The notes beneath the pieces are model-generated. The model was not told the DNA's origin. It saw only the letters and a list, made by a program, of their open reading frames with translations, and searched no databases. A program made the position numbers and the translations under genes. From Corynebacterium amycolatum (GTDB lineage Bacteria > Actinomycetota > Actinomycetes > Mycobacteriales > Mycobacteriaceae), in assembly GCF_049243625.1 (NCBI RefSeq), contig NZ_CP046975.1: a DNA stretch of 32,000 nt; one strand, written 5' to 3'. Shown piece after piece: positions 6,741 through 30,755 of the stretch. Within the stretch, counting starts at the first letter, position 1. Each line of letters starts with the position of its first letter.

Positions 6741-7823
6741 ATGAAGCACGCAAGAAGTCGACTGGCGGTAGCGGCTTTCGCAGCACTTTTGTCCTTGGTG
6801 GCCCCGGTCGCTGCACATGCTGTCGTGGTTGGTCCGGGTGACCCGATTCGAACTCCCATGGAGGGAAGTCCGTGGGATGGGTATCGAAATATCAACTCGC
6901 CGATGTGTTCGGCGGGTGTTCCGGGGACGGTGACGGACCGCAACGGCGAGAAGCATCGGGTCATGTTGACCGCAGGGCACTGCCTGAATGATGCTCCGGA
7001 TGTGGGTCTGCCAATCGTCACTGGTGAGGTGTATGTGCCAACCACTGAAGGTGATAAGCGCATTGGTACCGCAGGTGCCCATCGTTGGGAATTGCCGCAG
7101 GAAGATGCCGGACTGGAGTCGTTGCCGGCAGGCTTTAATGGCGCGGACTACGGAATAATCAACCTGGATCCGGACGTAGAGACTACCGGCGCAAGTTACT
7201 CCATTGATGAAAATGGTCAGAGCTACGGGGAGCCGGTAGTGATGACTGGCATTCAGGACAATGAAGACCTGCCGCGTGGCGAAGTCTCCTTCGATAATCT
7301 TGGCAAGCCTATCTGCAAGGACGGTATGCGCACCGGACGGGCCTGTGGATACCAGGTATTCCGAGCTCGAAACGGCATCTGGACGGTTGGTATTGGCGTT
7401 GATCACGGTGACTCTGGCGGAAATGCCTACGACCCGACCACAAATGAAGTTATTGGCGTGAATTCGATGACCTTCGGTCCGGTCTCGCGTGTGATGCCCG
7501 CAGATATTGCCATTCAGGAGGCCTACGGTATTCCCGACGGTCAAGTAAACGACCACTTCGAGGTATCGGATTCCACGGCTCAGCGCGACTCCACCTATCG
7601 CACCCTCAACGAGGATATGGCGGCGGATCAGGAGTATGTCCGGGCGCAGGATTCACAGGATTCACAGGAAGGTTCTGTACCGCAGCTAGTCGATCTCGTG
7701 GACCAGCTGCCGCAGTTGCCGAAACTCCCTGAGCTGCCACAATCGCCCCAATTGCCACAATCGTCACACCTGTCTGGGTCGCCTCAGTTGGCAGAAATTC
7801 AGCTTCCAAGCTTTGAGAGCTAG
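6741..7823 (+). CDS. Secreted S1 (streptogrisin/alpha-lytic-like) serine protease with a Pro/Gln-rich C-terminal tail
   Basis: Signal peptide MKHARSRLAVAAFAALLSLVAPVAAHA. Catalytic triad context is LTAGHC, ADYGII and HGDSGG. ICKDGMRTGRACGYQV is a streptogrisin-like disulfide loop. The tail reads LPQLPKLPELPQSPQLPQS. Confidence 0.85.
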   Translation: MKHARSRLAVAAFAALLSLVAPVAAHAVVVGPGDPIRTPMEGSPWDGYRNINSPMCSAGVPGTVTDRNGEKHRVMLTAGHCLNDAPDVGLPIVTGEVYVPTTEGDKRIGTAGAHRWELPQEDAGLESLPAGFNGADYGIINLDPDVETTGASYSIDENGQSYGEPVVMTGIQDNEDLPRGEVSFDNLGKPICKDGMRTGRACGYQVFRARNGIWTVGIGVDHGDSGGNAYDPTTNEVIGVNSMTFGPVSRVMPADIAIQEAYGIPDGQVNDHFEVSDSTAQRDSTYRTLNEDMAADQEYVRAQDSQDSQEGSVPQLVDLVDQLPQLPKLPELPQSPQLPQSSHLSGSPQLAEIQLPSFES

Positions 7824-7904: not shown

Positions 7905-8078
7905 TGCATTGCTGTTGAGCAAACTTTTTGATGTCTAATGAGTCTGAAATGAAGACGAATGAACGGTTCCTCGACTGAGAATTTCACCCTAGGTTTCATT
8001 TTTGGAGAGCTTTGTAAAGGTGTCCCTAATACACTGAGTGGGACAAGTTTTCTGTACAGAAATGGAGTAGCGCACACT

Positions 8079-9218
8079 ATGGCCAGTTCGAAGAAGGTCG
8101 CCACACTCACGGCTGCACTGTCGGTAGCTGCAGGTGGCTTTGTGCCCGGAATCGCGGTAGCTGAGGCTGCACCGGCAAACTCGGATGTTGTCATCGGCCC
8201 GGGTTCGCCGTTGCGGATGCCGTTCCCGAGCAGCAAGAACATCGACGGACGTCATGTTCAGTCTCCGATGTGCTCTCTGGGAGTTCCTGGCACCGTTGTG
8301 GATCAGAATGGTGTTTCGCATCGCGTCATCATGACTGCCGGCCACTGTGTTGTGGCGAAGGATACTGAAACCGGCGAAGAGGTCACCGGCCAGTTCTTCA
8401 TCCCAACCAAGGACGGCGACAAGCTGGTCAACAAGGACTACATGGGCACCGATGTCATGCCGGAAGAGAGCGACTTCGACGAAAACACCACTATGCCGGA
8501 GTTCTTCAACGAGCTCTTCAATAGCGGTGACTACGGCATCATTGAGGTTCAGGACGACATTAAGACCACCTCCATGTCCCACTCTGTGGATGAGTTCGGC
8601 AACGTCCACGGCGAGCCGGTCCAGATCGTCGGTATCGAGGACAAGCGCACTCTCGACCCGATGGAGATTTCCGTCGACAACTTCGGTGAGCCCGTGTGCA
8701 CTGACGGTTCCCGTACTGGCCGCGGTTGCGGCTTCCAGGTCTTCCGTGTCCGCAACGGTGTCTGGGCCATCGCTCCGATTGACCACGGCGATTCGGGCGG
8801 AAACGCCTACAACCCAGAGACTCGCGAGGCCATCGGCGTTAACTCCATGGGTATTGGCCCGCTGAGCCGCTTCCAGCCGATTGACGTTGCTCTTGAAGAG
8901 CAGTACGACATCCCAGACGGCCAGGTTAACGAGCGCTTCAAGGTAGAGACCTCCACTGAACCGCAGTCTGAGTTCCGCACGATTGACGAGGACGTTCAGT
9001 ACACCAACCAGCACGTCCCGCAGGAAGAGCCGGATTTGGGTCCGATTGGCGAGCTGCTTCCAGAGGGCGTCGAGGTCCCGCCGGAGATTGCCGACATCAT
9101 CTCGGAGAGCCCAGCTCTCCCGGAGCTGCCCATTCCGGAGCTGTCGGGGTCGACCGCTCAGGCAACACAGGCTGTCAGCAACCTCTCCTCGCAGGCAGGT
9201 CTTCCGAGCCTGTTCTAA
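8079..9218 (+). CDS. Secreted S1 (streptogrisin/alpha-lytic-like) serine protease, paralog of 6741..7823
   Basis: This is ORF 7959..9218 trimmed to ATG 8079, which gives the signal peptide MASSKKVATLTAALSVAAGGFVPGIAVAEA, with GGAG upstream. It has the same motifs as its neighbour: MTAGHC, GDYGII, VCTDGSRTGRGCGFQV, HGDSGG. Confidence 0.85.
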   Translation: MASSKKVATLTAALSVAAGGFVPGIAVAEAAPANSDVVIGPGSPLRMPFPSSKNIDGRHVQSPMCSLGVPGTVVDQNGVSHRVIMTAGHCVVAKDTETGEEVTGQFFIPTKDGDKLVNKDYMGTDVMPEESDFDENTTMPEFFNELFNSGDYGIIEVQDDIKTTSMSHSVDEFGNVHGEPVQIVGIEDKRTLDPMEISVDNFGEPVCTDGSRTGRGCGFQVFRVRNGVWAIAPIDHGDSGGNAYNPETREAIGVNSMGIGPLSRFQPIDVALEEQYDIPDGQVNERFKVETSTEPQSEFRTIDEDVQYTNQHVPQEEPDLGPIGELLPEGVEVPPEIADIISESPALPELPIPELSGSTAQATQAVSNLSSQAGLPSLF

Positions 9219-9270
9219 TCAGGTCACTGCAGTCTCGTAGATAGAGCGTTCGCTTTACGACGCTCCGTTT

Positions 9271-9316
9271 AACCCCCTATTCCGCCATGGTGGCGGAGTA
9301 GGGGGTTTAGCTTTTG
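9271..9316. terminator. Bidirectional terminator between convergent genes
   Basis: The stem is AACCCCCTATTCCGCCA-tgg-TGGCGGAGTAGGGGGTT, about 17 bp with one mismatch or wobble. It is followed by tagcttttgtt. Confidence 0.7.
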
Positions 9317-12205
9317 TTAGTCAATCGGCTTTGCGTGAAGGTACTCGAAGAATGTGTCGGGAACGGGATGTTCAAGGTGAAGCTTCATTGTGACAACATC
9401 TAATTCTTTGTCTTTTAGCCCCTTCATTGTCGTTTGTTGTGGATCGCTGGGAGTCACTTCGCCAAGGTAGGTGAATCCTTCATCTGGTAAATCATCCCTA
9501 CGCACAAACAAATGGATTGGGAACTTGTGTTGGATGATGCTCTGGACCTCTTGGCTCTTGAGGGTCCTATTTGAACGTGTAAACCAGCGCATCGTCGAAC
9601 GGTCAATGAATTCATCTTCGTAGGCAATGCTCGGAGCAAGCCCCTTGTGTTTACGGTAGTTCACGAAGATAGGGATCGTCTGCGAGTGGGAATCAATCTT
9701 GTAGCCATTTAGCGTGCCTGTTTGATCCGACCGAAGCCTCAAAAGACGAGAAACATCCTTTCTGGAATAGCGTTGATTGCGGCGAAGCACACCCGCGAAA
9801 TAATCATTTTCGCGGGACAGGAAAAGACCAGTTTGAATGATGTCATCCACATGCTCTCGAAAGCTATTTGGATATGTCGAATCCCACTTGTTGTACAAAG
9901 TCAAAAATTCCTCAGTCAGACTGTAACGTGAGGTTTCGTCATCGTACCGGACCAATCTAATTTCTTCGTAGGCCCGCTTCGGGTAAAACTCGAGGTTGAG
10001 CACTCGTTCGACAACAGAGAGATCCAGCTCGCTGTGAGAAACAGCCCTTGTGTCGAGAAAGTCAGAAAATTCTTCACGTGTGATGGAACCATGCTTAATA
10101 AGCTGGTCAAGTAGAAGTAACTCTTGGGGTTGCTTTCCGGGAAGTAGCTCGCGGGACAAAAACTTCAAGTATTCACTCTGCTTATCCGTTGGTCCTGTTG
10201 CTGCTTTGTCTACTCGGTGGAGGAGTTCCCAATAATTCTTGGTACGCCTGGTCGAGATCACTGCAGGGTCAACGAGGTTGAACCGAGCAAAATCCATTAG
10301 TCGTGGTACACGATTCAGTCGGTACTGGAGAAGTTGAATATCCTTTTTAAATTCAGCAATCGTGTCTACCGAGGCTGTATCGATGGCTTTAAGGATCTTC
10401 TCCTTGGCAATTTCATCAAAGCTTACAGTGGAGCCCGATGGGATATTGGAGGGATCAACGACTTTGCTCTTGAGCTTCGACTTATTTCTAGATGAATCGC
10501 CGAAAAGAGCCATCGGGATCATGTAATTGTTCTTGTAGTTTCCAATAAAGTCAATTACTCGGAGGTGGTCTTTTCCTGGGGCTTTGCGAAGACCACGGCC
10601 CAGCTGCTGGGTAAAAATGATGTTTGACTCGGTGCCGCGTAGCATCACTACTTGATTTACTGCCGGAATGTCGATGCCCTCGTTGAAAATATCAACGGTG
10701 ATGATGTAGTCGAGTTCGCCTGCAGATAACTCCGCAACGACAGCATTTCGTGTCGAGATTGAGTCTTCACCTAGAAGCACCTTCGTCCGTAGCTGCCGGC
10801 CAAAGAGCTGCTTTTGGTTGAGCTGCTCCGACAGCGCTTTCGCTTCGTCTTTCCGACTGCAAAACATGAGCCCCTTAACTCTCTCAGGAAACCCGTAGAC
10901 ACGGAGCTTCTCCAGGAGATAGTCGATACGATCTTCAGCGACGAGAGCATCGATGGATGCAGTCTTATCACCGATCGCTCGAACTCCATCATCAAAATCG
11001 GTGACACCGAAATAATGGAATGGTGCGAGCATGTCGGCTTCAAGAGCGGCTTGCAGTCGGATTTCGTAAGGAACGTTGAAATCAAAGAGGCGAAAGATGT
11101 CCCCTGAATCTGGACGCTCGGGAGTTGCGGTCAAGCCGAGGACAAACTCGCTGTTGAAGTATTCAAAAACTGGCTTGTAGGAATTAGCAGCGCCACGATG
11201 AACCTCATCGATAATGATGAAGTCAAAGGCATCTGGAGAAAAGGTTTTGTAAGTCGATTGGGAATACAAGGATTGAACTGAGGCAAAAAGGTATCGTGCA
11301 TCAGTTTCTTTTTTCCCACCAACCAAGAGTCCAAAGTCGGCGTCCGTAAGCTCAGAACCGGAATAAGCAAGTACCTTTCGGAATTCACTCTTAGTCTTTT
11401 CCAGAATCTGTTCCCGGTGGGCGACGAACAAGACGCGCTCGGCCTCTGCTTCTTTAACTGCTAGTGCAGCAAGGATCGTCTTCCCCGTGCCGGTAGCGGA
11501 AATTATGAGGCCTTTCCGCTCGCCTGACTGCCTCAAGTCAGCGATATTCGACAGCGCTACCTGCTGCATTTGATTGGCAATAACTGGGCCCTCGGGCAGC
11601 AACTTTGTGTGCGTGTTTTTCGAAACTGGAGGTACGCGGTTCTGTTCGTACTCATCGACCCATTGATGAGTTAGTGGGATGCAACGGTTACGTTGCATAT
11701 CAATGGCCGTCTCAATTTGGAACGTGATATCACCATTCTGGTGGCTGGAAAAGTGTAGATTCCACTCTTCGTTTTCCTGGAGCGCCTTTTGCGTCAAATT
11801 TGCGCTGCCGACGATGGCTGAAAGCTCAACCTCTTTGTAAAAGAGGTATCCCTTTGGATGAAAACCCCGGTGATGATCCTCGGGGTAGATGTAGACGTTC
11901 AGTCCCTCAATTTCGAGTAGTTCTCTGAACATCGATGGTGAATTGAAATCAAGGTAGTTCGACGTGATGATCGTCATTGGGCCAGAAAACTGAAGGAGAT
12001 CCTCCTTCAGCATGGCAAGAGCGGCCGGAGAAATAAATGCTACTGAAAATATGAAACTCGTAGCGGTGCGTAGCTCCTCGCGGAGCGCATTGTACATAGT
12101 GGCCGACTCATCGTTGCGAATGAGTCGGGGATTGTATTTTTTGTCGGCAACGATGTTTTTATCGATGAAGCCGTATCGCAGGTCTCCGACCAGGGAATTC
12201 ATCAT
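9317..12205 (-). CDS. HKD (PLD-family) nuclease / SF2 DEAD-DEAH helicase / DUF3427-type C-terminal domain fusion protein
   Basis: 962-aa ORF. The N-terminus has a single HKD motif, FHPKGYLFYKEVELSAIVGSANLT. Helicase motifs are I SATGTGKT, II IIIDEVHR, III LGLTATPER and VI QQLGRGLR. A ~300-aa C-terminal region follows, and calling it DUF3427 is from memory of this architecture. The gene is visibly AT-richer than its flanks. Confidence 0.85.
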   Translation of the reverse strand: MMNSLVGDLRYGFIDKNIVADKKYNPRLIRNDESATMYNALREELRTATSFIFSVAFISPAALAMLKEDLLQFSGPMTIITSNYLDFNSPSMFRELLEIEGLNVYIYPEDHHRGFHPKGYLFYKEVELSAIVGSANLTQKALQENEEWNLHFSSHQNGDITFQIETAIDMQRNRCIPLTHQWVDEYEQNRVPPVSKNTHTKLLPEGPVIANQMQQVALSNIADLRQSGERKGLIISATGTGKTILAALAVKEAEAERVLFVAHREQILEKTKSEFRKVLAYSGSELTDADFGLLVGGKKETDARYLFASVQSLYSQSTYKTFSPDAFDFIIIDEVHRGAANSYKPVFEYFNSEFVLGLTATPERPDSGDIFRLFDFNVPYEIRLQAALEADMLAPFHYFGVTDFDDGVRAIGDKTASIDALVAEDRIDYLLEKLRVYGFPERVKGLMFCSRKDEAKALSEQLNQKQLFGRQLRTKVLLGEDSISTRNAVVAELSAGELDYIITVDIFNEGIDIPAVNQVVMLRGTESNIIFTQQLGRGLRKAPGKDHLRVIDFIGNYKNNYMIPMALFGDSSRNKSKLKSKVVDPSNIPSGSTVSFDEIAKEKILKAIDTASVDTIAEFKKDIQLLQYRLNRVPRLMDFARFNLVDPAVISTRRTKNYWELLHRVDKAATGPTDKQSEYLKFLSRELLPGKQPQELLLLDQLIKHGSITREEFSDFLDTRAVSHSELDLSVVERVLNLEFYPKRAYEEIRLVRYDDETSRYSLTEEFLTLYNKWDSTYPNSFREHVDDIIQTGLFLSRENDYFAGVLRRNQRYSRKDVSRLLRLRSDQTGTLNGYKIDSHSQTIPIFVNYRKHKGLAPSIAYEDEFIDRSTMRWFTRSNRTLKSQEVQSIIQHKFPIHLFVRRDDLPDEGFTYLGEVTPSDPQQTTMKGLKDKELDVVTMKLHLEHPVPDTFFEYLHAKPID

Positions 12206-12246
12206 TGTTTTAGCATACTAAATGCACGCTGCGTCGCTTGTATTGA

Positions 12247-12639
12247 TTATTGTTCGTTTACAAGAATGTCGACTGTAGGGATGTCCGCTGGCGCCCAATC
12301 AACGGAATAAAGTTCGGCCGGTTCTAACCAACGATATTCAGTGTGCTCCGTTAGCTTGATTTCGGGAGAAGAAACGGAACAAAAGTATGTCGCCAGTGAG
12401 ATAACGGCGAAGTCATACTCATGGTCGACAGTGAGAATGTGGTTCCCAATCTCAGCTTCAAGTTTTAGCTCTTCTCTTAGTTCACGGGCTAGAGCCTCAC
12501 GAGGGGACTCACCTTCTTCGATCTTTCCACCGGGAAATTCCCAATAGTTTTCCATCGAGCGACCTGGGCCGCGTTGGGCGGCGAAGATTTTTCCTTCGTA
12601 GGTAAGAACCGCACCTACAACTTCGATTCGTTTTTTCAT
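12247..12639 (-). CDS. Nudix hydrolase, MutT/NudG-type (deoxy)nucleoside triphosphate pyrophosphohydrolase
   Basis: The Nudix box is GGKIEEGESPREALARELREELKLE. The start is chosen at ATG 12639 (MKKRIEVVG), which has GGAG 5 nt upstream. The longest ORF starts at 12660. AT-richer composition, like the downstream helicase gene. Confidence 0.85.
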   Translation of the reverse strand: MKKRIEVVGAVLTYEGKIFAAQRGPGRSMENYWEFPGGKIEEGESPREALARELREELKLEAEIGNHILTVDHEYDFAVISLATYFCSVSSPEIKLTEHTEYRWLEPAELYSVDWAPADIPTVDILVNEQ

Positions 12640-12759
12640 CTCAACTCCGCGTTCTGTCATTGCGCCTCATTCTAGTAATCGTCACTGTTTGCAGATCGGG
12701 CTATGGTGAACTCCTGGGCTTTTTATTTTCTCTTTTGCACAGTAGAAAGGACCGTTACC

Positions 12760-14142
12760 TTGTCAGCTTCCCGTTCGCGCGGCCTGCTTCGTCGTAAAGC
12801 AAAGTGCGAATCTCAGCCGGCTATCGCATCGGAGGTGGGAAGCGAATCACAAGGTCTGGGTCCTCAGTCGAGTGAATTAGACCGGACAAAACAGCCGATT
12901 CCGCGAGAGATTTGGATTCTGGTCAGCGCCGCGTTCATCATCGCGCTGGGCTTTGGGCTGATTGCTCCAATTCTTCCGCAGTACGCACGCAGCTTCGATG
13001 TGGGTGTGTTCGCGGCCAGCTTCGTGGTCAGTTCGTTCTCCATTTTTCGGCTGATCTTCGCGCCGGCATCGGGTTCGCTGGTAGAGAAGCTCGGATATCG
13101 ACGCACGTACCTGACCGGCATCAGCATTGTCGCATTCTCGACTTTGCTTGTCGGTATTGCGCAGACTTATTGGCAACTGCTGGCGTTTCGTGCGCTCGGA
13201 GGCATCGGTTCGACGATGTTTACGGTCTCGGCAATGGGGCTGATTGTGCGGATTTCACCGCCGGAGATCCGCGGTAAGAGCTCGGCCGCCTACGGCACAG
13301 CCTTCCTGTTGGGCAATGTCTTTGGCCCAATTATTGGTGCGGCAATGGGCGCATGGGGCATGCGAGTGCCGTTTTTCATCTACGGTGGCGCGCTGATTGT
13401 GGCAACGATTGTGGTCGGCATGTCGCTGAGCGCGGAGCATCTTCGCCACGTAGTGCCAAAGCGCACGACTCCAGTGCTGAAGTTCTCCGAGGCAATCCGG
13501 GACTCGGCATATCGAAGCGCACTAGTCGGAGCCTTCGCCAACGGTTGGTCGAACTTCGGCGTGCGCGTCGCGATTGTCCCGCTGTTCGCTGCGGCAACGT
13601 TCTCCCATGTCGGCGCCCCAGAACCGGGCAGCGATGTGGCAGTAGCTGCCACTGCCACAGCTGGTTTCGCGCTGACGGCCTTCGCGCTCGGCAATGTTAC
13701 GGCACTTCAGTTTTCCGGTCGTTTGTCCGACCGCATCGGCCGTCGTCCACTGCTCATCACAGGCCTGTTTATCAACGGCGTATTCACTGGCGCAATCGGA
13801 TTTAGCAGCGGCGCCATTCCGCTACTGATTCTCTCAGTCCTCGCCGGCTTCGGCGCTGGCATGATTAATCCATCGCAGCAGGCCGTGCTTGCCGACGTCA
13901 TCGGCGCCAACCGCCAAGGTGGAAAGGTGCTCGCCAATTTCCAAATGGCTCAGGACTTCGGAGCGATCTCCGGCCCGCTGATTGTCGGCGCAATCGTGGA
14001 TGCCGCAGGGTTCAAGGCCGGATTCCTTGTTTGCGGTGTCATCTCGCTGGTCGCGATGGTGGGCTGGATATTCGGGCGCGAGACTCTACCAGCCCACTCG
14101 TCGAACAGCGGAGCAAAAGAAGCCAAAGCGAAAACAGCTTAA
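12760..14142 (+). CDS. MFS transporter (DHA1-like)
   Basis: Multi-TM protein with MFS-type loops (GSLVEKLGYRRTYL, RLSDRIGRRPLL). The listed ORF starts at 12703, but its first 19 codons are T-rich and atypical. TTG 12760 follows GAAAGGA. The start remains uncertain. Confidence 0.8.
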   Translation: MSASRSRGLLRRKAKCESQPAIASEVGSESQGLGPQSSELDRTKQPIPREIWILVSAAFIIALGFGLIAPILPQYARSFDVGVFAASFVVSSFSIFRLIFAPASGSLVEKLGYRRTYLTGISIVAFSTLLVGIAQTYWQLLAFRALGGIGSTMFTVSAMGLIVRISPPEIRGKSSAAYGTAFLLGNVFGPIIGAAMGAWGMRVPFFIYGGALIVATIVVGMSLSAEHLRHVVPKRTTPVLKFSEAIRDSAYRSALVGAFANGWSNFGVRVAIVPLFAAATFSHVGAPEPGSDVAVAATATAGFALTAFALGNVTALQFSGRLSDRIGRRPLLITGLFINGVFTGAIGFSSGAIPLLILSVLAGFGAGMINPSQQAVLADVIGANRQGGKVLANFQMAQDFGAISGPLIVGAIVDAAGFKAGFLVCGVISLVAMVGWIFGRETLPAHSSNSGAKEAKAKTA

Positions 14143-18735: not shown

Positions 18736-19377
18736 CTATTTCGTGCCTTTCCCAGCGCGGATCCCACACGCAGCTGCCAGCGCCGTCCAGTCTGCCGAAG
18801 ATACGGGCAGGTCCCATTTAATGGCCACCGCTAAGTAACGCTGCGAATAGTCACACGCCTTCGCATCTTCGGGAAGCCATTCCGCCGGGCTGGCATCTCC
18901 TTTATCCCTGTTGACCGCACTTCGGGTGGGCGCGAGGTTGGCCTCGATATCGTTGCCAAATCGCCGACGCCGCTCGGCATCCCAGGCGTAGGCTCCGAAA
19001 TCCCACGCCGCTGCCAACGGATAAATGTGGTCGATATCGACCTCATGCGCACCCACCGGGTCACCCGTGTAAGGGTCGGGGATTTCGCGCAGGGCGCCGT
19101 CGTCAAGCGAACATACAGAGCCCCCGAACCACGCCGCCAACACTTTATGGCGTGTATTGCAATCGGCAGAACCTGCCCAGACGTCGAAGCGCTCGCGCTT
19201 GTACCCGGTGACGGTGGGGCGGCCTGCGACGACGCGCACAGTGCGCAGTTGCTTGACGACGGCTTCGGCGTCCGGCCCAGCGGGGGAGGATGTGACGAGA
19301 ACTCGCGTAAGTGCAAAGGATGAGACAAAGGCGGCGGTCAAGACGGCGGCTAGGATGGCAAATAAAAAAGGGCGCAT
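18736..19377 (-). CDS. Secreted or membrane-anchored HNH / DUF1524-type (His-Me finger) nuclease
   Basis: An N-terminal hydrophobic signal or anchor, MRPFLFAILAAVLTAAFVSSFA. The motifs DIDHIYPLAAAW ... NLAPTRSAVNRDKGDASPAEW are typical of the DUF1524 HNH family. Confidence 0.7.
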   Translation of the reverse strand: MRPFLFAILAAVLTAAFVSSFALTRVLVTSSPAGPDAEAVVKQLRTVRVVAGRPTVTGYKRERFDVWAGSADCNTRHKVLAAWFGGSVCSLDDGALREIPDPYTGDPVGAHEVDIDHIYPLAAAWDFGAYAWDAERRRRFGNDIEANLAPTRSAVNRDKGDASPAEWLPEDAKACDYSQRYLAVAIKWDLPVSSADWTALAAACGIRAGKGTK

Positions 19378-21546: not shown

Positions 21547-21591
21547 ATGACTGAGCAGGCGATGACTGAGCAAGCAGTGGGGAGGAAGTAA
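21547..21591 (+). other. Candidate 14-codon upstream ORF (MTEQAMTEQAVGRK) whose stop overlaps the SNF2 ATG
   Basis: It reads atg act gag cag gcg atg act gag caa gca gtg ggg agg aag taa. The TAA (21589-21591) shares its last base with ATG 21591 (TAATG). It is built on a 15-bp tandem duplication at 21546-21575. Confidence 0.3.
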
Positions 21592-24500
21592 TGGATCAAG
21601 TTGCTAAGTCAGCGGTGCCGTTGCTGCTGCACGCGGTCTGGAAAGATGATTCGGGTCTTCACCTATGGGTGGAGCGGCCAGAGGGGCACCGGATTATTGC
21701 GGACGTGGATTTGCTGGAAGTCCCGGCGCATCAGCGTCGGCTTTTTGCAGTGCTGGACCAGGGGAGTCGAGCGCAACTGACGCTAAAACTGCGCACACCG
21801 AAGGGGCGGGCAGTAGAGAAAGCGGTACCCACATGGGTGTTCCCGCCATGGGCTGCGGTGACAGCACTGGTGCAATTGCAGGAGGAAGTTGCCTCGGCGG
21901 CGATGGCACCGGATCTTCGGTTCTTTGTGGATGTTGTACAGGGATTGGATGCTTTCGCACGCTCTGGGCGGGCATTGGTGGCGCTGACATGGGAAGACAA
22001 TGAGTGGTGGCCGACGTGGCGGATGTCGGAGGGGCTGAGTGAGATTGCTTGGCAGAGTCAGGTCATTTCCCGTACACCACCGGTGTTGATTGATAACGGA
22101 GGTGCCACGGTGGCTGAGGACTTCATCAATCGGATGTTTCATTGGGTCACCAACGCGCTCCTGGCCGATTTGGATGAACCGGCAGAACAGCGTCAGAGTT
22201 TCGTGCGGTCGTTGTTGCAGTCTCAGTCCCTGGGGCGTGCGACGCCGGGGGTGGCGCAGTCACTGGCAAAGTGGAGACTGTCGGCCGATGGTGAGGATGT
22301 TCGTCTGCAGCTAATGGTGCAGGAACCTGTTGGTTTTGAAGGCCAGCTGGAAGACTTGCCGGATGTGGATCTTCCGCAGCTGTTGGAGTTGCAGGATCGA
22401 GCGGATGAAGAAGGGGGCTCAGTAACTCGCTTCAATCCTCGTTCAGCTGCGGTGGAACATGAGACTCTATGGCCATTGCGGATGTACTACCGCATCGGCG
22501 TCGCAGCTCCGGAGCACCTGAATCCAGAAATGTGTCGCCGGTCCGTGCTGTCGCTGCTTCGCCCGCAGCTATTGGCTGCACAGGAGGCATTCCCAACGCT
22601 CAAATATGCGAAGGCAGCGGGCCACCCGGGCTTGGATCTGCTGCTGACCTCAGAGCAGCTGATAGAGCTTATGACTGATGGCATCTCGCAGCTGGCAAAG
22701 GTTGATATCGATGTGATGCTGCCGCCGAACTGGAAGTCAGTGGAGACCACCCTGCAGTTGCACACTGAAGTCATCCAGTTAGATCCGACGGGGCCTGCTG
22801 GGCGCCGTTCGGAACCGAAACTCGGATTTGACCAACTGGTTGATTACGAGTGGAAGCTGGCCGTGGGGGATGCCGTACTGACGGAAGCGGAAATGCGTGA
22901 GCTCGCTGCATCGAGTACGGGGCTAGTGCATCTGCGAGACCATTGGGTGCACGCGAACCCAGAGGTAGCTAGGGAAGCCCTGAAGTTTTTGGTGGAGCAG
23001 ACCAAGGCCGGGGAGGAAACCGGTAAGGGGCAAGCCACCCTGAAAGAGCTGGTCTTCGACGGTGGCTTAGAGTCGCAAGCTCCAGCAGCAGTGCCAGTCG
23101 CCCCCAGGGATCCCTCTTGGCTCAAGGCGTTGGTGTCGAAGTACTCAGACGGTTCCACGGTCCTCGCAGAGTCCGTCGAGGTGCCACCGAGTTTTGTCGG
23201 TGAGCTGCGGGAGTATCAACAGCGCGGTGTGGAGTGGCTGACGGATATGTCCAACCGCGGCTTTGGTGTCATTCTCGCTGATGACATGGGGCTCGGTAAG
23301 ACTGTGCAAATTCTGGCGCTGTTGGAGTATGAGCGCTGCCGTCGGAAAGCAGATGCTACGGCTCAAGAGCACAGGACTTCGCTTCTGGTGGTTCCGACAG
23401 GTGTGTTGCGCAATTGGGCAGCAGAAGCGGCTAAGTTCACTCCAGAGCTTAAGGTTGGGCTGCTGCATGGTTCAAACCGCCCTCATGGTGGAGAACTACA
23501 AGAATTTATCGGAAAACACGATGTTGTTGTGACGACCTATGGTGTTGCTACCCGCGATGTGAACGAACTCGCCCAAGTGCAGTGGGATCATGTGATTGCT
23601 GACGAAGCACAGGCAATTAAGAACCCCAACGCACAGGTATCCAGAGCGCTGCGGAGCCTGGGCTCGCGACACAACATCGCCATGACTGGTACTCCGGTGG
23701 AAAATGACTTGGGCGAACTGCGCACCATCATGGATTTCTGTAATCCAGGCATGCTGGGCTCGGCGAATGCATTTCGCAACAAGTTTGCGATTCCCATCGA
23801 GCGTGATGGGAATGCGGAAATGCTACTGCAATTGCAGTCGATTACAGCACCTTTTATCCTGCGCCGACTCAAGTCGGATCCAGCTATCGCGCCGGACCTG
23901 CCCAAGAAGAATGAGCAGGTGGAGATGGTTCCTCTCACGACGGAGCAGGCTTTCTTGTATCAGGAGGCCGTGAAGGATATCGAGGACAAGCTTAAGCGCT
24001 CGAAGCGGAATCGTTCTGGCAGCTTCGGGCGAAAGAGCATCATCCTCGGCGGCATCATGAAGTTGAAGCAGATTTGCAACCACCCAGCGCACTACCAGCA
24101 CGACGGCTCGGGGCTGCTTAATCATGGGCAGCATCGCTCGGGCAAGGTCGCACGGTTGGAAGAGCTCGTCGATGAGATTGTGCAAAACGGTGAACGCGCG
24201 CTTGTGTTCACGCAGTTCGTGGAGTTTGGCAAGATGCTTGCCCCTCATTTCAGCAAGCGCTTGGGCGTGGACATTCCGTTTATTCAAGGGGCAATGACCC
24301 CAGCACAGCGCGAGAAAGTAGTGGCAGAGTTTAATGCCCCGGACGGTCCGCCAATCATTTTGCTGTCGACTCTCGCGGCAGGTGTCGGCATCAACCTAGT
24401 TGCCGCCAACCACGTCATTCACATTGACAGGTGGTGGAATCCAGCGGTTGAAAACCAGGCCACGGACCGTTCCTACCGCATCGGTCAGCGTAAAGACGTC

Positions 24501-24830
24501 CATGTGCACAAGCTGGTCAGTGTTGGAACGCTTGAAGAACGCATCGACGAGCTGATTTTTGAAAAAGCAGAATTGGCGGATGCAGTTGTGCGCGCTGGTG
24601 AAACCAAGCTGACGGAGATGGACTTTCACCGTTTGCGGTCACTGTGGCAATTGGACAAGGACAAGATTCAGTCACTGCGTGAATCGATGGACGCAGCGGA
24701 GTCAAAGTCCGGTGGGACGGTGACCGATGGGGTGAACCCGGAGGCCACGGCATTGGATTCCGCAACCTCGGATGACGATTCGATTCCCAACAATGTGACA
24801 CCGTTTAGAGTCCAGAAGAGGTGGTACTAA
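21591..24830 (+). CDS. SNF2-family helicase (HelZ-like) with a long N-terminal SNF2-associated region
   Basis: 1079 aa with RBS GGAGGA. Motifs are I LADDMGLGKT, II DEAQAIKN, III MTGTPVEN and VI QATDRSYRIGQ. The upstream region LVHLRDHWVHANPE is typical of bacterial SNF2-associated domains. Confidence 0.9.
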   Translation: MDQVAKSAVPLLLHAVWKDDSGLHLWVERPEGHRIIADVDLLEVPAHQRRLFAVLDQGSRAQLTLKLRTPKGRAVEKAVPTWVFPPWAAVTALVQLQEEVASAAMAPDLRFFVDVVQGLDAFARSGRALVALTWEDNEWWPTWRMSEGLSEIAWQSQVISRTPPVLIDNGGATVAEDFINRMFHWVTNALLADLDEPAEQRQSFVRSLLQSQSLGRATPGVAQSLAKWRLSADGEDVRLQLMVQEPVGFEGQLEDLPDVDLPQLLELQDRADEEGGSVTRFNPRSAAVEHETLWPLRMYYRIGVAAPEHLNPEMCRRSVLSLLRPQLLAAQEAFPTLKYAKAAGHPGLDLLLTSEQLIELMTDGISQLAKVDIDVMLPPNWKSVETTLQLHTEVIQLDPTGPAGRRSEPKLGFDQLVDYEWKLAVGDAVLTEAEMRELAASSTGLVHLRDHWVHANPEVAREALKFLVEQTKAGEETGKGQATLKELVFDGGLESQAPAAVPVAPRDPSWLKALVSKYSDGSTVLAESVEVPPSFVGELREYQQRGVEWLTDMSNRGFGVILADDMGLGKTVQILALLEYERCRRKADATAQEHRTSLLVVPTGVLRNWAAEAAKFTPELKVGLLHGSNRPHGGELQEFIGKHDVVVTTYGVATRDVNELAQVQWDHVIADEAQAIKNPNAQVSRALRSLGSRHNIAMTGTPVENDLGELRTIMDFCNPGMLGSANAFRNKFAIPIERDGNAEMLLQLQSITAPFILRRLKSDPAIAPDLPKKNEQVEMVPLTTEQAFLYQEAVKDIEDKLKRSKRNRSGSFGRKSIILGGIMKLKQICNHPAHYQHDGSGLLNHGQHRSGKVARLEELVDEIVQNGERALVFTQFVEFGKMLAPHFSKRLGVDIPFIQGAMTPAQREKVVAEFNAPDGPPIILLSTLAAGVGINLVAANHVIHIDRWWNPAVENQATDRSYRIGQRKDVHVHKLVSVGTLEERIDELIFEKAELADAVVRAGETKLTEMDFHRLRSLWQLDKDKIQSLRESMDAAESKSGGTVTDGVNPEATALDSATSDDDSIPNNVTPFRVQKRWY

Positions 24831-25888
24831 TGGCCGGTGACGGAGACGTGACATGGGGCGACAATGTCATCTTTGCCGAGTTTGGCAAGGGCCCCTCTGG
24901 AAAGCGCGGTCGTAAAAGGACTACGGCGCGAAGCGCACCAGCAACCAGCTCGACGATTGAAAAGCTCCTGGCCACCCAGGACTGGGCTGGTGCATTTACC
25001 GGGCAGCAGCGACGTGGAACCTCAGCGCGTGTGGCGGTCGAGCCACGTACTACTTTTGCCCGGTGGGTGTGGGAGTTCATCATCCGTGGTGCCGATTCGG
25101 GTCGTATTCACAGAGGCGAGAAGTACAGGTTCGACGGCAATGTGCTCGGGCTTCGAATCGCGGATGGTTACATCATCGGGGAAGTGCAGGGCAGCCAGCC
25201 GGAACCATTCTCAGTCTTTATTCGGTTCCCACGGCGGGAGCAGAAACAAACTGACGACGTACTGCGGTGGTTGGTGAACAATCCGTCGGCTTTTACGGAG
25301 TTTGAGCACGGCGAGTTGCCGTATGAGCAGATGGAAATGCTGTTGTGCGATGGTGAAGAGCACATTTATAGCGAATGCACCTGCCCGGACCCAGCACCTG
25401 TGTGTAAGCACACCGTTGCAGTCGCCGCTCAACTTGTCGCTGATATCGACCGTGATCCGCTGTCGCTAATGCAGCTGCGCGATTATCCGCAGCGCGAATT
25501 GCAACGCCGGCTTCAGGAACTAACACAGCTGCGAAACCGGACTGCGCCAAAGCGCCTCGGGCTTGGCGGCGAGGTTCGGGAAGATCCCAATAAAACCACC
25601 CAGAAGTCGGGTGACGCTGGTGGAAATGATGGCGGTGACAACGAGCAGAAAAAGGTTGCCGAGCTTTTCGCGGTCGAAGCCGACTACTGGGGCAATGATT
25701 TGGAACGAGTCAGTGTTCCTTCGCTCGAGGTTATTGACCCGCTAACAGTTACCGACCGTAGTTTGCTGCATGAAGCATTGCAGCCAACCTGCGTAGTTTC
25801 GAGAGAGACCATTCGTGCAGTCGCCGATTTGGAAGATTGTTGGCAACATCTGCAGGAATCGCTGAGCCTGGAACAAAAGGAGCGCTAG
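24830..25888 (+). CDS. SWIM zinc-finger protein
   Basis: The SWIM motif is CTCPDPAPVCKH (CxC-x6-CxH). ATG 24830 overlaps the SNF2 stop codon (TAATG). The ORF track starts it at the in-frame GTG 24821. Confidence 0.85.
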   Translation: MAGDGDVTWGDNVIFAEFGKGPSGKRGRKRTTARSAPATSSTIEKLLATQDWAGAFTGQQRRGTSARVAVEPRTTFARWVWEFIIRGADSGRIHRGEKYRFDGNVLGLRIADGYIIGEVQGSQPEPFSVFIRFPRREQKQTDDVLRWLVNNPSAFTEFEHGELPYEQMEMLLCDGEEHIYSECTCPDPAPVCKHTVAVAAQLVADIDRDPLSLMQLRDYPQRELQRRLQELTQLRNRTAPKRLGLGGEVREDPNKTTQKSGDAGGNDGGDNEQKKVAELFAVEADYWGNDLERVSVPSLEVIDPLTVTDRSLLHEALQPTCVVSRETIRAVADLEDCWQHLQESLSLEQKER

Positions 25889-25890
25889 TC

Positions 25891-27066
25891 ATGAAATTCA
25901 TTCACACCTCAGATTGGCAACTGGGAATGACTCGGTGGTTCCTAGAGCTCGATGGCGGTGAAGCCCAAGCTAGGTTCCACGAAAGTCGCCTCAACGCCAT
26001 CGACCGCATCGGTGAGTTGGCGACCAGCGAAGGCGCTGAGTTCATCGTCGTCGCTGGAGACGTGTTCGATTCCAATACGTTGCCGGACAAGGTGTTCTTG
26101 CGGGCTCTTGAGCGAATCGCCAAGCTACCCGTGCCGGTGTATCTCCTGCCCGGCAACCATGATGCGCTTGATGCTTCTTCCATTTATCGACGTAGCGCTT
26201 TCGAATCTTTGGAAGACCGAGGAGTTTACGTAATTCGCGACAGCGAGCCCATTTCCATCCGTGACGGGGTGGAACTCATCGGTGTGCCAGTACACGGCAA
26301 GTATTCGGCAGACGACATCGTGGCGGAAATAGCCACGGAGCTTGAGCCGGCCGATGGAATCCGAGTGATGGTCGCACACGGCCAAGTAGAAGGCTTTGGT
26401 GCTGATGCGGGAGCCACCATTGATTTGACCAGCTTGGAACAGGCTATTGACCGTGGGGCGTTGCACTATGTGGCGCTGGGGGATTCCCACTCCACGAGCC
26501 AACTTGACCATGCTGGCAGAGTTTATTTCTCCGGCGCGCACGAAACCACAGCGTATGACGACAAAGAACGGGATTCCGGCAATGCGCTAGTCGTCGACAT
26601 TGCAGAGGACGACCCCGAAAAGGGCTCAGTTACCGTGGCCTCCCACCGAGTGGGGCAGTGGGCTTTTCATGCCATCGACATGGATATCACTGGCGCGGAA
26701 GACCTCGATGAGTTCTTTGCTGAACTGGACGGTATCGAGGCGAAGACAGACACAGCGGTGAAGTATTCATTGCGAGGAACCGTGACACTGTCAGAGTCGA
26801 CTACCTTTGAAAACCGACTTGAGCAGTACCAACAGCTTTTCGCTGCACTTTATCGCCGGGAAAGTGGCTCCGATTTAACGGTGGTTCCGTCCGAAGGAGA
26901 TATCTCTAATCTCAATCTCACCGGTTATCCGCTCATAGCTGCAGAAAAACTAACGGTCTTGAGTAAAGGGCGAACCGAGAGCGGTAGCCCCCTATCAGAA
27001 TCTGAAACCACCGCAGCAGCTGATGCGCTTCGCTTGCTGGCCCGCCTAGCCGGAGAGAAGGAATAA
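25891..27066 (+). CDS. SbcD/Mre11-family metallophosphoesterase nuclease subunit (YhaO/SbcD-like)
   Basis: Phosphoesterase motifs are HTSDWQLG, VAGDVFD, LPGNHD, VAHG and LGDSH. ATG 25891 follows AAGGAG and lies 2 nt after the SWIM stop. The track's 25837 start is an upstream extension. Confidence 0.85.
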   Translation: MKFIHTSDWQLGMTRWFLELDGGEAQARFHESRLNAIDRIGELATSEGAEFIVVAGDVFDSNTLPDKVFLRALERIAKLPVPVYLLPGNHDALDASSIYRRSAFESLEDRGVYVIRDSEPISIRDGVELIGVPVHGKYSADDIVAEIATELEPADGIRVMVAHGQVEGFGADAGATIDLTSLEQAIDRGALHYVALGDSHSTSQLDHAGRVYFSGAHETTAYDDKERDSGNALVVDIAEDDPEKGSVTVASHRVGQWAFHAIDMDITGAEDLDEFFAELDGIEAKTDTAVKYSLRGTVTLSESTTFENRLEQYQQLFAALYRRESGSDLTVVPSEGDISNLNLTGYPLIAAEKLTVLSKGRTESGSPLSESETTAAADALRLLARLAGEKE

Positions 27067-27069
27067 ATC

Positions 27070-29741: not shown

Positions 29742-30233
29742 ATGCAAGATATTCCGTGGTTAAGTGATGAAGAGCAGCGGTTATGGCGCTCAATTCTGAA
29801 CGCTAAACGGGCCGTTGACAGGTCAATCGACCTTCAGCTGCAAGATTCTCTCGATATTTCCACTGCAGATTTTTCGGTTCTGGTTGTTCTCTCCGAGGCT
29901 GAAGACAATGTAGTGCGCATGCGCACCCTGTGTGAATCCCTGGAGTGGGACCGCAGCCGAATGTCACACCAAATTACTCGTATGGAGCGACGCGGGCTAG
30001 TAACTAAGGAACGCTGCGCCTGCGATAACCGTGGTATCGATGTCACGCTTACTGAACACGGTCGAACTGTGATTGAGAAAGCGGCGCCGAACCATGTGAA
30101 GCTTGTGCGCCATGTTTTGTTTGATGTGCTCGGTGAAAATATCGACTATCAGGGGATTTCCGCTGTGCTCGATAAGATTGCAGAGACCGCCAATGCTACG
30201 GTCACCGATTCAGTCGACGGACAAGCAGAGTAG
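29742..30233 (+). CDS. MarR-family transcriptional regulator
   Basis: 163 aa. It has a MarR-like winged-helix pattern (ISTADFSVLVVLSE ... RMSHQITRMERRGLVTKE ... DNRGIDVTLTEHG). It starts 14 nt after the SbcC-like stop. Confidence 0.8.
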   Translation: MQDIPWLSDEEQRLWRSILNAKRAVDRSIDLQLQDSLDISTADFSVLVVLSEAEDNVVRMRTLCESLEWDRSRMSHQITRMERRGLVTKERCACDNRGIDVTLTEHGRTVIEKAAPNHVKLVRHVLFDVLGENIDYQGISAVLDKIAETANATVTDSVDGQAE

Positions 30234-30302
30234 CCAAAAGTTTTTGTGAGTGTTTTCTCATTTGTCTCCGCTACGAGGCTCTCACCATTAGCCTAGAGCA
30301 GT

Positions 30303-30755
30303 ATGAACTCATTTGAATGGCTGAGTGATGATGAACAGCTCTTTTGGCAGTCGATGGTAGCTGCTTTTCGCGAGGTAGAGCGCAATATCGAGCGGAGCCT
30401 ACGCACTCGAACCGGGCTGACGTTCGCGGACTTTACCCTGCTCATCGCTCTGCATGAGGTAGAGGAGGGGATTCTGCATGTTGACAAGATTTGTGATCGA
30501 CTGAAGTGGAACCATCCCCGCGCGCTGCTACATACCAACAGGTTGGAAAAGCGCGGATTTATTCACACCGAAGACCACGGCGAAGACCCGGATTCGGATT
30601 ATGTCGTCGTCTTAACAGGCGTTGGTCGGCACGTGTTTGCCGAGGCGGCGCCGGATTATGTAGACACTGTTCGCCAGGAAGTTATTTCACCACTTGCTGA
30701 TGAAGACCGCGAAGTGATGCTGAGGTGCTTCCAGTCGGTTCTCGAAAGGAAATAA
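30303..30755 (+). CDS. MarR-family transcriptional regulator (paralog of 29742..30233)
   Basis: 150 aa. It shares the N-terminal WLSD(D/E)EQ..W motif and the helix-turn-helix layout (LTFADFTLLIALHE ... RLEKRGFIHTE). Confidence 0.8.
   Translation: MNSFEWLSDDEQLFWQSMVAAFREVERNIERSLRTRTGLTFADFTLLIALHEVEEGILHVDKICDRLKWNHPRALLHTNRLEKRGFIHTEDHGEDPDSDYVVVLTGVGRHVFAEAAPDYVDTVRQEVISPLADEDREVMLRCFQSVLERK

Follow-up and report, generated by a model that had tools for sequence, protein, structure and literature searches.

A pair of genes in a 32,000-nucleotide stretch of Corynebacterium amycolatum DNA (contig NZ_CP046975.1 of assembly GCF_049243625.1; we refer to this whole stretch as the window) is best explained as a SauUSI-type restriction enzyme with its conserved Nudix partner, the latter a proposed cleaner of the modified-cytosine nucleotide pool, both placed in an exchangeable chromosomal slot. 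We put the probability of this overall reading at about 0.8. The enzyme family, its domain architecture and its pairing with a Nudix gene are already known. Two points go further than a preliminary description of the window: the alternation of the slot's content between Corynebacterium lactis genomes and a specific biochemical hypothesis for the Nudix protein, a partner that has been conserved but unexplained for 15 years. Public records name the large protein 'DUF3427 domain-containing protein' or 'DEAD/DEAH box helicase', and the small one 8-oxo-dGTP diphosphatase; behind these labels, the two genes are better read as encoding a SauUSI-type Type IV restriction enzyme and its partner.

The large protein and the SauUSI family

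The 962-amino-acid (aa) product of the large gene is collinear with SauUSI of Staphylococcus aureus in Protein Data Bank (PDB) entry 7CLG (aa 3-956 against 6-951, E 1e-203), and has a full-length match to the PADLOC model mREase_IV (E 1e-210, 2-956 of 953), which is PDLC03658, 'Type IV methyl-directed restriction enzyme'. Its Pfam matches are PLDc_2 at aa 88-155, which holds a single HxK...GSxN motif, ResIII and Helicase_C at 211-540 (E 4e-38 and 1.5e-11), which include a DEVH box, and DUF3427 at 682-956 (E 1.4e-70). The preliminary description had recognized the single intact HKD motif and the SF2 core, had supposed that the former would need dimerization to work, as indeed holds for the SauUSI family (7CLG is a dimer), and had classed the gene pair as a restriction-like or antiphage module, in agreement with the full-length matches to SauUSI and mREase_IV. 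It was mistaken in two respects. The architecture, for which it knew of no characterized function, has both published biochemistry (PMC3141236) and a structure (7CLG; PMC7913695), and the C-terminal part that it listed as a domain of unknown function would, by the SauUSI structure, comprise an alpha-helical coupler and an SRA-like reader of 5-methylcytosine (5mC).

With ATP as its energy source, SauUSI cleaves DNA in which 5mC or 5-hydroxymethylcytosine (5hmC) is present, and it restricts methylated plasmids and phage (PMC3141236; reviewed in PMC3874153). In the 7CLG structure it forms a dimer via its PLD domains with a pre-formed HxK site, followed by the SF2 ATPase, a helical coupler and a C-terminal target-recognition domain of SRA fold (PMC7913695). 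Recognition of 5mC triggers unidirectional translocation and repeated cutting, which leaves the DNA shredded (2025 preprint, bioRxiv 10.1101/2025.10.16.682607). The C. amycolatum protein shares with SauUSI (SAUSA300_2431) its length, the order of its domains (PLD nuclease, SF2 ATPase, coupler, SRA-like domain), the H/K/N/E residues of the active site, the helicase motifs and four residues of the 5mC pocket. The two loci are also alike in having a Nudix gene immediately upstream and no companion methyltransferase; here, no methyltransferase domain was found in any open reading frame (ORF) scanned across the 32-kb window. Unlike SauUSI, which is about 40-45% identical, the present protein belongs to an actinobacterial host with 57% GC, and carries Asn in place of the DNA-intercalating Met-829 and Tyr-123 in place of Glu-126, the last residue of the 'HxK(x)4E' motif.

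Conservation extends to the residues on which SauUSI is known to depend. H116, K118, N136 and E147 align with SauUSI H119, K121, N139 and E150, whose alanine mutants abolish cleavage (PMC3141236). These four, together with K242, D333 and E334, are invariant across 79 homologues, and the SF2 motifs (including GTGKT at 239-243 and DEVH at 333-336) are invariant in alignment A1 as well as in the same homologues. Around a flipped 5mC, six SauUSI residues have been modelled: Y831, F841, I842, D858, W868 and a finger formed by M829 (PMC7913695). Four of the six are conserved here, Y835, F847, D864 and W874 aligning with Y831, F841, D858 and W868 and being invariant in alignment A1, while I842 aligns with V848 and M829 with N833. 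Across the 79 homologues F847 is found in 78, and the other pocket residues are nearly invariant.

Given these matches, the large protein is, by homology, a predicted SauUSI-family restriction enzyme of Type IV (modification-dependent), genuine but unremarkable among the members of a defence family already known. Two points weigh against carrying the properties of SauUSI over in full. M829, which fills the DNA cavity in the SauUSI model, corresponds to N833 in a column that varies across the family, and both the 5mC dependence and the sequence specificity are extrapolated from a homologue at 40-45% identity. SauUSI itself prefers the context S5mCNGS.

A DNA-repair or recombination helicase-nuclease of the RadD, XPB or UvrB kind, rather than a restriction enzyme, would agree with the public 'DEAD/DEAH box helicase' name and with weak, partial matches to these three proteins over the helicase core. 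Those matches, however, cover the motor only and fall far under the family cut-offs, whereas the full-length match is SauUSI, and the gene is frameshifted or truncated in some strains, as is typical of dispensable restriction genes. We regard a repair function as extremely improbable. As to the alleles themselves, a 1-bp deletion in KV836272.1 (Corynebacterium sp. HMSC074C04) frameshifts the restriction gene, which is called as 650 aa there, and other truncated alleles of 665 and 259 aa occur in the 90% cluster. They may represent natural inactivation, as in S. aureus RN4220, or sequencing error.

Like the other Type IV systems McrBC, Mrr, McrA and GmrSD, the predicted enzyme would carry out modification-dependent restriction without a methyltransferase, and like the PLD-nuclease restriction enzyme BfiI it would have one HxK active site made by a dimer. 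It differs from all of these, and from NgoFVII, which have other motors (the GTPase McrB) or no motor, and other readers. We know of no conserved Nudix partner for McrBC, Mrr, McrA, GmrSD, BfiI or NgoFVII.

Every step of the mechanism that we propose for the large protein has been shown for SauUSI and is carried over here from conservation. The 962-aa protein would homodimerize through its N-terminal PLD domains to give one HxK active site, as in 7CLG. Its SRA-like domain would flip 5mC or 5hmC out of incoming DNA, and this recognition would switch on the SF2 ATPase and set off translocation along the DNA. The nuclease would then cut both strands, repeated cycles shredding the foreign molecule. 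A companion methyltransferase would be unneeded, since the host leaves its own DNA without C5-methylation. One prediction is that C. amycolatum, an emerging multidrug-resistant skin commensal, rejects Dcm-methylated plasmid DNA; if this is true, dcm- Escherichia coli donors are advisable for genetic work in this species, as they are for S. aureus.

The Nudix partner and its possible role

The small protein has a Pfam NUDIX match (E 4e-18) and a full-length match to PADLOC PDC-S07 (E 3.7e-52, 7-135 of 135), and lies upstream of the restriction gene, all as expected of the SauUSI-linked Nudix (SAUSA300_2432 / NWMN_2385 / PDC-S07). Its Nudix box is intact (G45-x5-E51-x7-R59-E60-L61-x-E63-E64-x-K66-L67, in the numbering of a 137-aa form), with the penultimate Gly replaced by Lys as in PDB entry 5X1X. 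This entry, described as 'Mutator MutT protein', is also the best PDB match (E 7e-36, 46% identity), followed by 3GWY (85 bits) and NudG (2RRK), consistent with the MutT/NudG type assigned in the preliminary description. Since 5X1X is 77% identical to the Nudix beside the Staphylococcus petrasii SauUSI homologue, it is probably the staphylococcal SauUSI-linked Nudix itself, its Staphylococcus origin being read from sequence identity. When a profile of the partner clade was scored against structures, the order in bits was 5X1X 215, 3GWY 128, NudG 2RRK 115, Bartonella MutT 3HHJ 104, 3EES 103, MutT2 101 and E. coli MutT 76, the last being the lowest among MutT-type structures with E below 1e-20. 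The partner clade and NudG have a C-terminal aPADIP motif in common.

The nearest biochemically characterized relative is 3GWY, the Bacteroides fragilis protein Q5LBB1, which is 44-57% identical to partner Nudixes. It hydrolyses 5-Me-CTP, 5-Me-dCTP and 5-hydroxymethyl-dCTP at 4-7e6 M-1 s-1, and canonical NTPs at much lower rates (PMC5158307). Two of these substrates, 5-Me-dCTP and 5-hydroxymethyl-dCTP, bear exactly the pair of modifications recognized in DNA by SauUSI. At its C terminus, Q5LBB1 has the motif WAEADKP, as against WAPADIP in the partner. As a SauUSI partner in its own right, 3GWY was ruled out by its DprA-like, non-SauUSI neighbourhood in Bacteroides. E. coli NudG (Orf135, 2RRK) and mycobacterial MutT2 (5ZRC) likewise have the MutT-type fold and box and prefer 5-methyl-dCTP over CTP or dCTP. 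They differ in being housekeeping genes unlinked to restriction, and the window Nudix scores below the equivalog cut-off for NudG.

The pairing of the two genes, for which the preliminary description knew of no characterized function, was reported in 2011 by Xu et al., who pointed out that a MutT/Nudix gene (SAUSA300_2432) is conserved beside sauUSI, counted 'at least 60' linked pairs and left the function of this gene open (PMC3141236). Monk et al. deleted the partner nudix in S. aureus Newman and found that restriction was not relieved (PMC3312211), and a 2025 survey of Streptococcus suis found PDC-S07 and Type IV restriction-modification co-localized in 23 of 23 cases. Our literature search found no function assigned to the SauUSI-linked Nudix or to PDC-S07.

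How often Nudix genes accompany DUF3427 helicases, a statistic that the preliminary description had proposed, was determined for a set of 80 SauUSI-like loci (38-54% identity), each from a different species within the Actinomycetota or Bacillota. In 73 of the 80, the SauUSI-like gene directly adjoins a gene homologous to the Nudix of the window. In 60 of these the Nudix is upstream and co-oriented (gaps of 6-204 nucleotides), and in 13 it is downstream on the opposite strand, convergent with the restriction gene (gaps of 19-117 nucleotides). Approached from the Nudix side, 80 metagenomic loci include 34 with a SauUSI-like neighbour, and 24 of these show a third arrangement, in which the Nudix is downstream and on the same strand. 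Pairwise identities of restriction protein and Nudix correlate as well (Mantel r = 0.46, reached by 0 of 999 permutations). That the two genes stay adjacent in three different orders, co-transcription being impossible in one of them, argues for a functional link between Nudix and restriction enzyme, beyond a shared operon.

Three further observations concern unusual pairs. In Streptococcus oralis, the convergent Nudix beside the SauUSI-like gene (L064:10886-11293) has an in-frame stop and is a possible pseudogene. In another Corynebacterium-like contig, the orthologous MFS gene is flanked on its opposite side by a pair (L091:9311-12950) that consists of a divergent PLD-helicase-DUF3427 protein with 31% identity and a length of 1053 aa and of a 161-aa Nudix from a different clade. 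Six enzymes from Lactobacillaceae (L073, L080-L084) have Asn in the D864 column, which corresponds to the cytosine-contacting Asp of the SauUSI model, and five of the six have no adjacent Nudix. This combination of D864 to Asn and Nudix loss hints at a coupled specificity of reader and partner; the six Asn enzymes form one clade, so that a single evolutionary event may be involved.

We propose, tentatively and at slightly less than even odds, that the Nudix is a dedicated 5-methyl- and 5-hydroxymethyl-dCTP pyrophosphohydrolase and acts as the self-protection arm of SauUSI-type restriction. The proposal is founded on the substrates of its nearest characterized relatives, which act on 5-methyl-dCTP, and of Q5LBB1 in particular, which acts on both modifications read by SauUSI. 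Polymerases incorporate 5-methyl-dCTP no less readily than dCTP, and its main source inside the cell has been suggested to be methylated DNA that was degraded (PMC10742078). The Nudix would not be required for restriction; rather, it would clear 5-methyl- and 5-hydroxymethyl-dCTP from the nucleotide pool, so that modified cytosine from shredded or scavenged DNA would be kept out of the unmethylated host chromosome, sparing it self-cleavage. It may additionally starve phages that build 5hmC DNA. Such a role agrees with the nudix deletion in S. aureus, which showed no restriction phenotype. Under this proposal, a cell with a Type IV enzyme and no self-marking methyltransferase would instead keep the modified base out of its deoxynucleotide pool. 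If true, this would be a control of immunity at the level of the nucleotide pool, new to described restriction systems.

Several observations weigh against the pool-cleaning proposal. The nudix deletion is viable in SauUSI+ S. aureus (PMC3312211), so that any antidote function of the Nudix is dispensable under laboratory conditions. Among the metagenomic Nudix loci, 17 that extend for 1.5 kb or more on each side lack a SauUSI-like neighbour; the ten neighbours scanned, from seven of these loci, are housekeeping-type genes, and no link between the Nudix clade and other kinds of 5mC-dependent enzymes was found. The Bacteroides gene for 3GWY adjoins a DprA-like gene and no SauUSI-like one. NCBIfam NudG (NF007834), although the best-scoring NCBIfam family, gives 103.8 bits as against an equivalog cut-off of 156. 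The positions of Orf135 R72 and R77 (numbering from the alignment) are Tyr and Gly in the partner clade, and these two arginines reportedly matter for substrate recognition.

A more conventional view would give the Nudix a general house-cleaning or antimutator function, as a MutT-like 8-oxo-dGTPase or broad (d)NTP pyrophosphatase that travels with the restriction gene without functional coupling. The public 8-oxo-dGTP diphosphatase label, the free-standing members of the clade among housekeeping genes and the S. aureus deletion without restriction phenotype all fit this view. We nevertheless consider it unlikely, as mere co-travelling accounts poorly for adjacency in 73 of 80 species and for three gene orders that include a convergent one without co-transcription, or for the pairing of a distant enzyme branch (31% identity) with a Nudix of a different clade. 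A MutT identity is disfavoured by the lowest rank of E. coli MutT in the profile scoring and by the score for MutT TIGR00586, 82.7 bits against a cut-off of 97.9.

Alternatively, the Nudix could be an anti-phage effector that destroys phage 5-hydroxymethyl-dCTP or depletes dCTP or CTP, complementing DNA cleavage rather than guarding the host genome. Nucleotide-depleting defences are known, PADLOC lists PDC-S07 as a stand-alone defence candidate, and 3GWY hydrolyses 5-hydroxymethyl-dCTP as well as 5-methyl-dCTP. This alternative seems doubtful to us, given that constitutive depletion of dCTP would be costly to the cell, that many hosts in our set presumably face no known 5hmC phages, and that no phage-resistance phenotype is reported for PDC-S07 in the literature found.

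An exchangeable slot between protease and transporter genes

The flanks of the gene pair are, as the preliminary description had said, a protease and an MFS transporter, the former trypsin-like (7959-9218) and the latter identified by Pfam. To place the locus in context, we compared it with those of relatives. In C. amycolatum, the module is present at this position, at 99.9% identity or more, in all 10 distinct contexts returned for the identical flanking SBF protein, one of which has an allele with a 1-bp deletion. In C. lactis, the slot differs between strain RW2-5 (CP006841.1) and a metagenome-assembled genome whose flanks are 98% identical to it. RW2-5 carries a NaeI-family endonuclease (E 1e-92) and a C5-cytosine methyltransferase (E 9e-63) there (L088:5838-7973), whereas the metagenome-assembled genome carries a SauUSI-like gene, 70% identical to that of the window at the protein level, and a Nudix gene (L092, reverse complement, 8000-11414, corresponding to about 9317-12735 of the window). 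Homology between the two C. lactis alleles breaks right after the protease terminator hairpin (equivalent to window positions 9271-9307), which both have in common, and about 27 nucleotides before the MFS start. In Corynebacterium sp. H78 the slot holds an acyltransferase, and further contexts hold other genes. On this comparison of junctions, the locus is an exchangeable defence slot between the protease and MFS genes.

The two C. lactis cassettes, NaeI with its C5-methyltransferase and the SauUSI-like gene with its Nudix, look allelic and are probably mutually incompatible: should the SauUSI-like enzyme share the S5mCNGS preference, it would target GCCGGC that has a methyl group on either of the inner cytosines. 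One chromosomal slot in near-identical genomes holds either a 5mC-dependent nuclease or a 5mC-writing restriction-modification system, which would be a natural example of incompatible defence alleles. C. pacaense, C. halotolerans, C. dentalis and C. variabile have their SauUSI-like genes at other genomic positions, and no synteny with the flanks was seen near SauUSI-like genes in these four species or in 76 other taxa. On mobile DNA the family is rare, being represented in 23 of 72,556 plasmid records and in 9 phage records, mostly partial.

The preliminary description had called the pair an insert, and two observations agree with this term. Windowed GC is 0.46-0.50 across 9500-12500 as against about 0.57 in the flanks, the large gene having a GC of 0.481 and a GC at third codon positions (GC3) of 0.533 where 19 other long ORFs of the window average 0.565 (standard deviation 0.034) and 0.630; and the cargo of the slot does differ among close relatives. 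Signs of recent arrival are lacking. Across the family, 72 of 79 species have a SauUSI-like gene with lower GC than its flanks (mean difference -5.9 points), in hosts that range from Staphylococcus (0.26 versus 0.36) to Corynebacterium (0.51 versus 0.64), which rules out low GC as proof of recent acquisition. An empty site, with the protease directly beside the MFS gene, for which the preliminary description had suggested a search, was not found among the five relative contexts fetched. No integrase or recombinase domain occurs in the neighbouring ORFs and no tRNA in the window, and the locus does not qualify as a mobile element or genomic island.

The imperfect direct repeat described around the pair fared similarly. 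Its strings, TAATC..GTCACTG..CAG, are literally present at 9216-9232 and 12676-12694, but their reading as an integration scar does not hold. The best local alignment of the two junctions scores 20, a value also attained when junction pairs are shuffled (19%) or window segments are paired at random (23%), and GTCACTG alone occurs 7 times in the window. Moreover, the left copy shares bases with the protease stop codon and lies about 100 nucleotides outside the segment exchanged in the sister species, and the repeat is missing from the C. lactis junctions.

These results bear on a further alternative, in which the genes would form an uncharacterized nuclease-helicase-DUF3427 defence system with a novel Nudix pairing, recently brought in by site-specific integration that left the direct repeat as a scar. 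The AT-richness of the module, the differing cargo in relatives and the existence of the repeat strings are what such an origin would predict. Yet both architecture and pairing have been published and have entries in PADLOC and the PDB, the repeat does not exceed chance and is misplaced, no integrase or tRNA was found, the module is present in 10 of 10 C. amycolatum contexts and has a syntenic C. lactis orthologue at 70% protein identity, and the GC deficit accompanies the family whatever the host. We therefore consider recent integration of a novel system very unlikely. A recent transfer between phyla, which was considered from a likeness to a Staphylococcus protein equal to that to other corynebacterial proteins, was ruled out, because the contig labelled Staphylococcus chromogenes that encodes this protein also has a Corynebacterium-like MFS orthologue. 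That contig, of 456,358 bp, probably belongs to an assembly that is contaminated or wrongly labelled; its SauUSI-like and MFS proteins resemble those of corynebacteria, being 50% and 55% identical to their counterparts in the window.

In C. hansenii (CP047211.1; L089:1-6386), the orthologous MFS gene has a Z1 / DUF4420 / DUF6339 cluster nearby that looks like another island of defence type. Defence genes may land repeatedly in the surroundings of this transporter gene.

Layout of the locus and other genes in the window

The features of the locus are collected in Table 1. Both genes lie on the minus strand (longest ORFs 9317-12205 and 12247-12660) and probably form one operon; their shared orientation and the 41 nucleotides between them are as stated in the preliminary description.

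Table 1. Positions of the restriction module, its domains and its boundaries in the window
Feature	Position	Strand	Remarks
SauUSI-family Type IV (5mC/5hmC-dependent, ATP-dependent) restriction endonuclease gene, predicted	9317-12205	minus	962 aa; full-length match to SauUSI 7CLG and PADLOC mREase_IV
Partner Nudix hydrolase gene	12247-12639	minus	130 aa from ATG 12639; alternative ATG 12660 gives 137 aa; PADLOC PDC-S07 / NudG-like
Spacer, Nudix stop to restriction-gene start	12206-12246	minus	41 nucleotides, from the sequence; same co-oriented order in 60/80 species
PLD (HKD) nuclease domain, N-terminal	11621-12205	minus	about aa 1-195; catalytic H116, K118, N136, E147 by alignment
SF2 helicase-like ATPase motor	10535-11575	minus	aa 211-557; Walker A ATGTGKT 237-243, DEVH 333-336, TATP 359-362, QQLGRGLR 533-540
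DUF3427 region, alpha-helical coupler and C-terminal SRA-like target-recognition domain	9320-10162	minus	Pfam DUF3427 (E 1.4e-70)
SRA-like target-recognition domain	9320-9778	minus	about aa 810-962
GC-rich hairpin of 17 bp between the convergent protease and restriction genes	9271-9307	T-tract on plus strand only	protease terminator; terminator scan
Divergent intergenic region, Nudix/MFS	12640-12759	no strand	presumed promoters; contains right edge of exchangeable cassette; C. lactis junction comparison
Right cassette edge	about 12745		just upstream of conserved MFS ribosome-binding site; C. lactis L088/L092 junctions

Two gene starts differ from those of the longest ORFs. The Nudix start is most likely ATG 12639, rather than ATG 12660, since a GGAG lies 8 nucleotides upstream and the same start is used in two complete-genome records (RefSeq-type). 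For the MFS gene, in which 12703-12760 is in question, the start is most likely TTG 12760, which is preceded by a GAAAGGA ribosome-binding site that is conserved in C. lactis. A sigma-70 consensus scan found no promoter in the spacer between these two genes, and Rfam and tRNA scans of the window returned nothing. The terminator hairpin folds very stably (-30.6 kcal/mol, z = -4.95), and the left edge of the cassette immediately follows it.

On the left, the neighbours are two paralogous trypsin-like protease genes on the plus strand (6741-7823 and 7959-9218, by Pfam), and on the right, the MFS transporter gene is followed by one for an SBF-family transporter (also by Pfam). Further along, 6.5 kb from the module, a 213-aa protein with GmrSD_C (DUF1524) and HNH_4 matches is encoded on the minus strand (18736-19377); it is probably outside any variable island, since the same position is kept in C. 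lactis. On the plus strand, 21591-29727 encodes an SNF2 helicase with DUF3670 (1079 aa), then a 355-aa ORF without Pfam match, then an SbcCD-like pair (Metallophos, 409 aa, and AAA_23, 885 aa). Two MarR-family regulators follow this pair, at 29742-30755.

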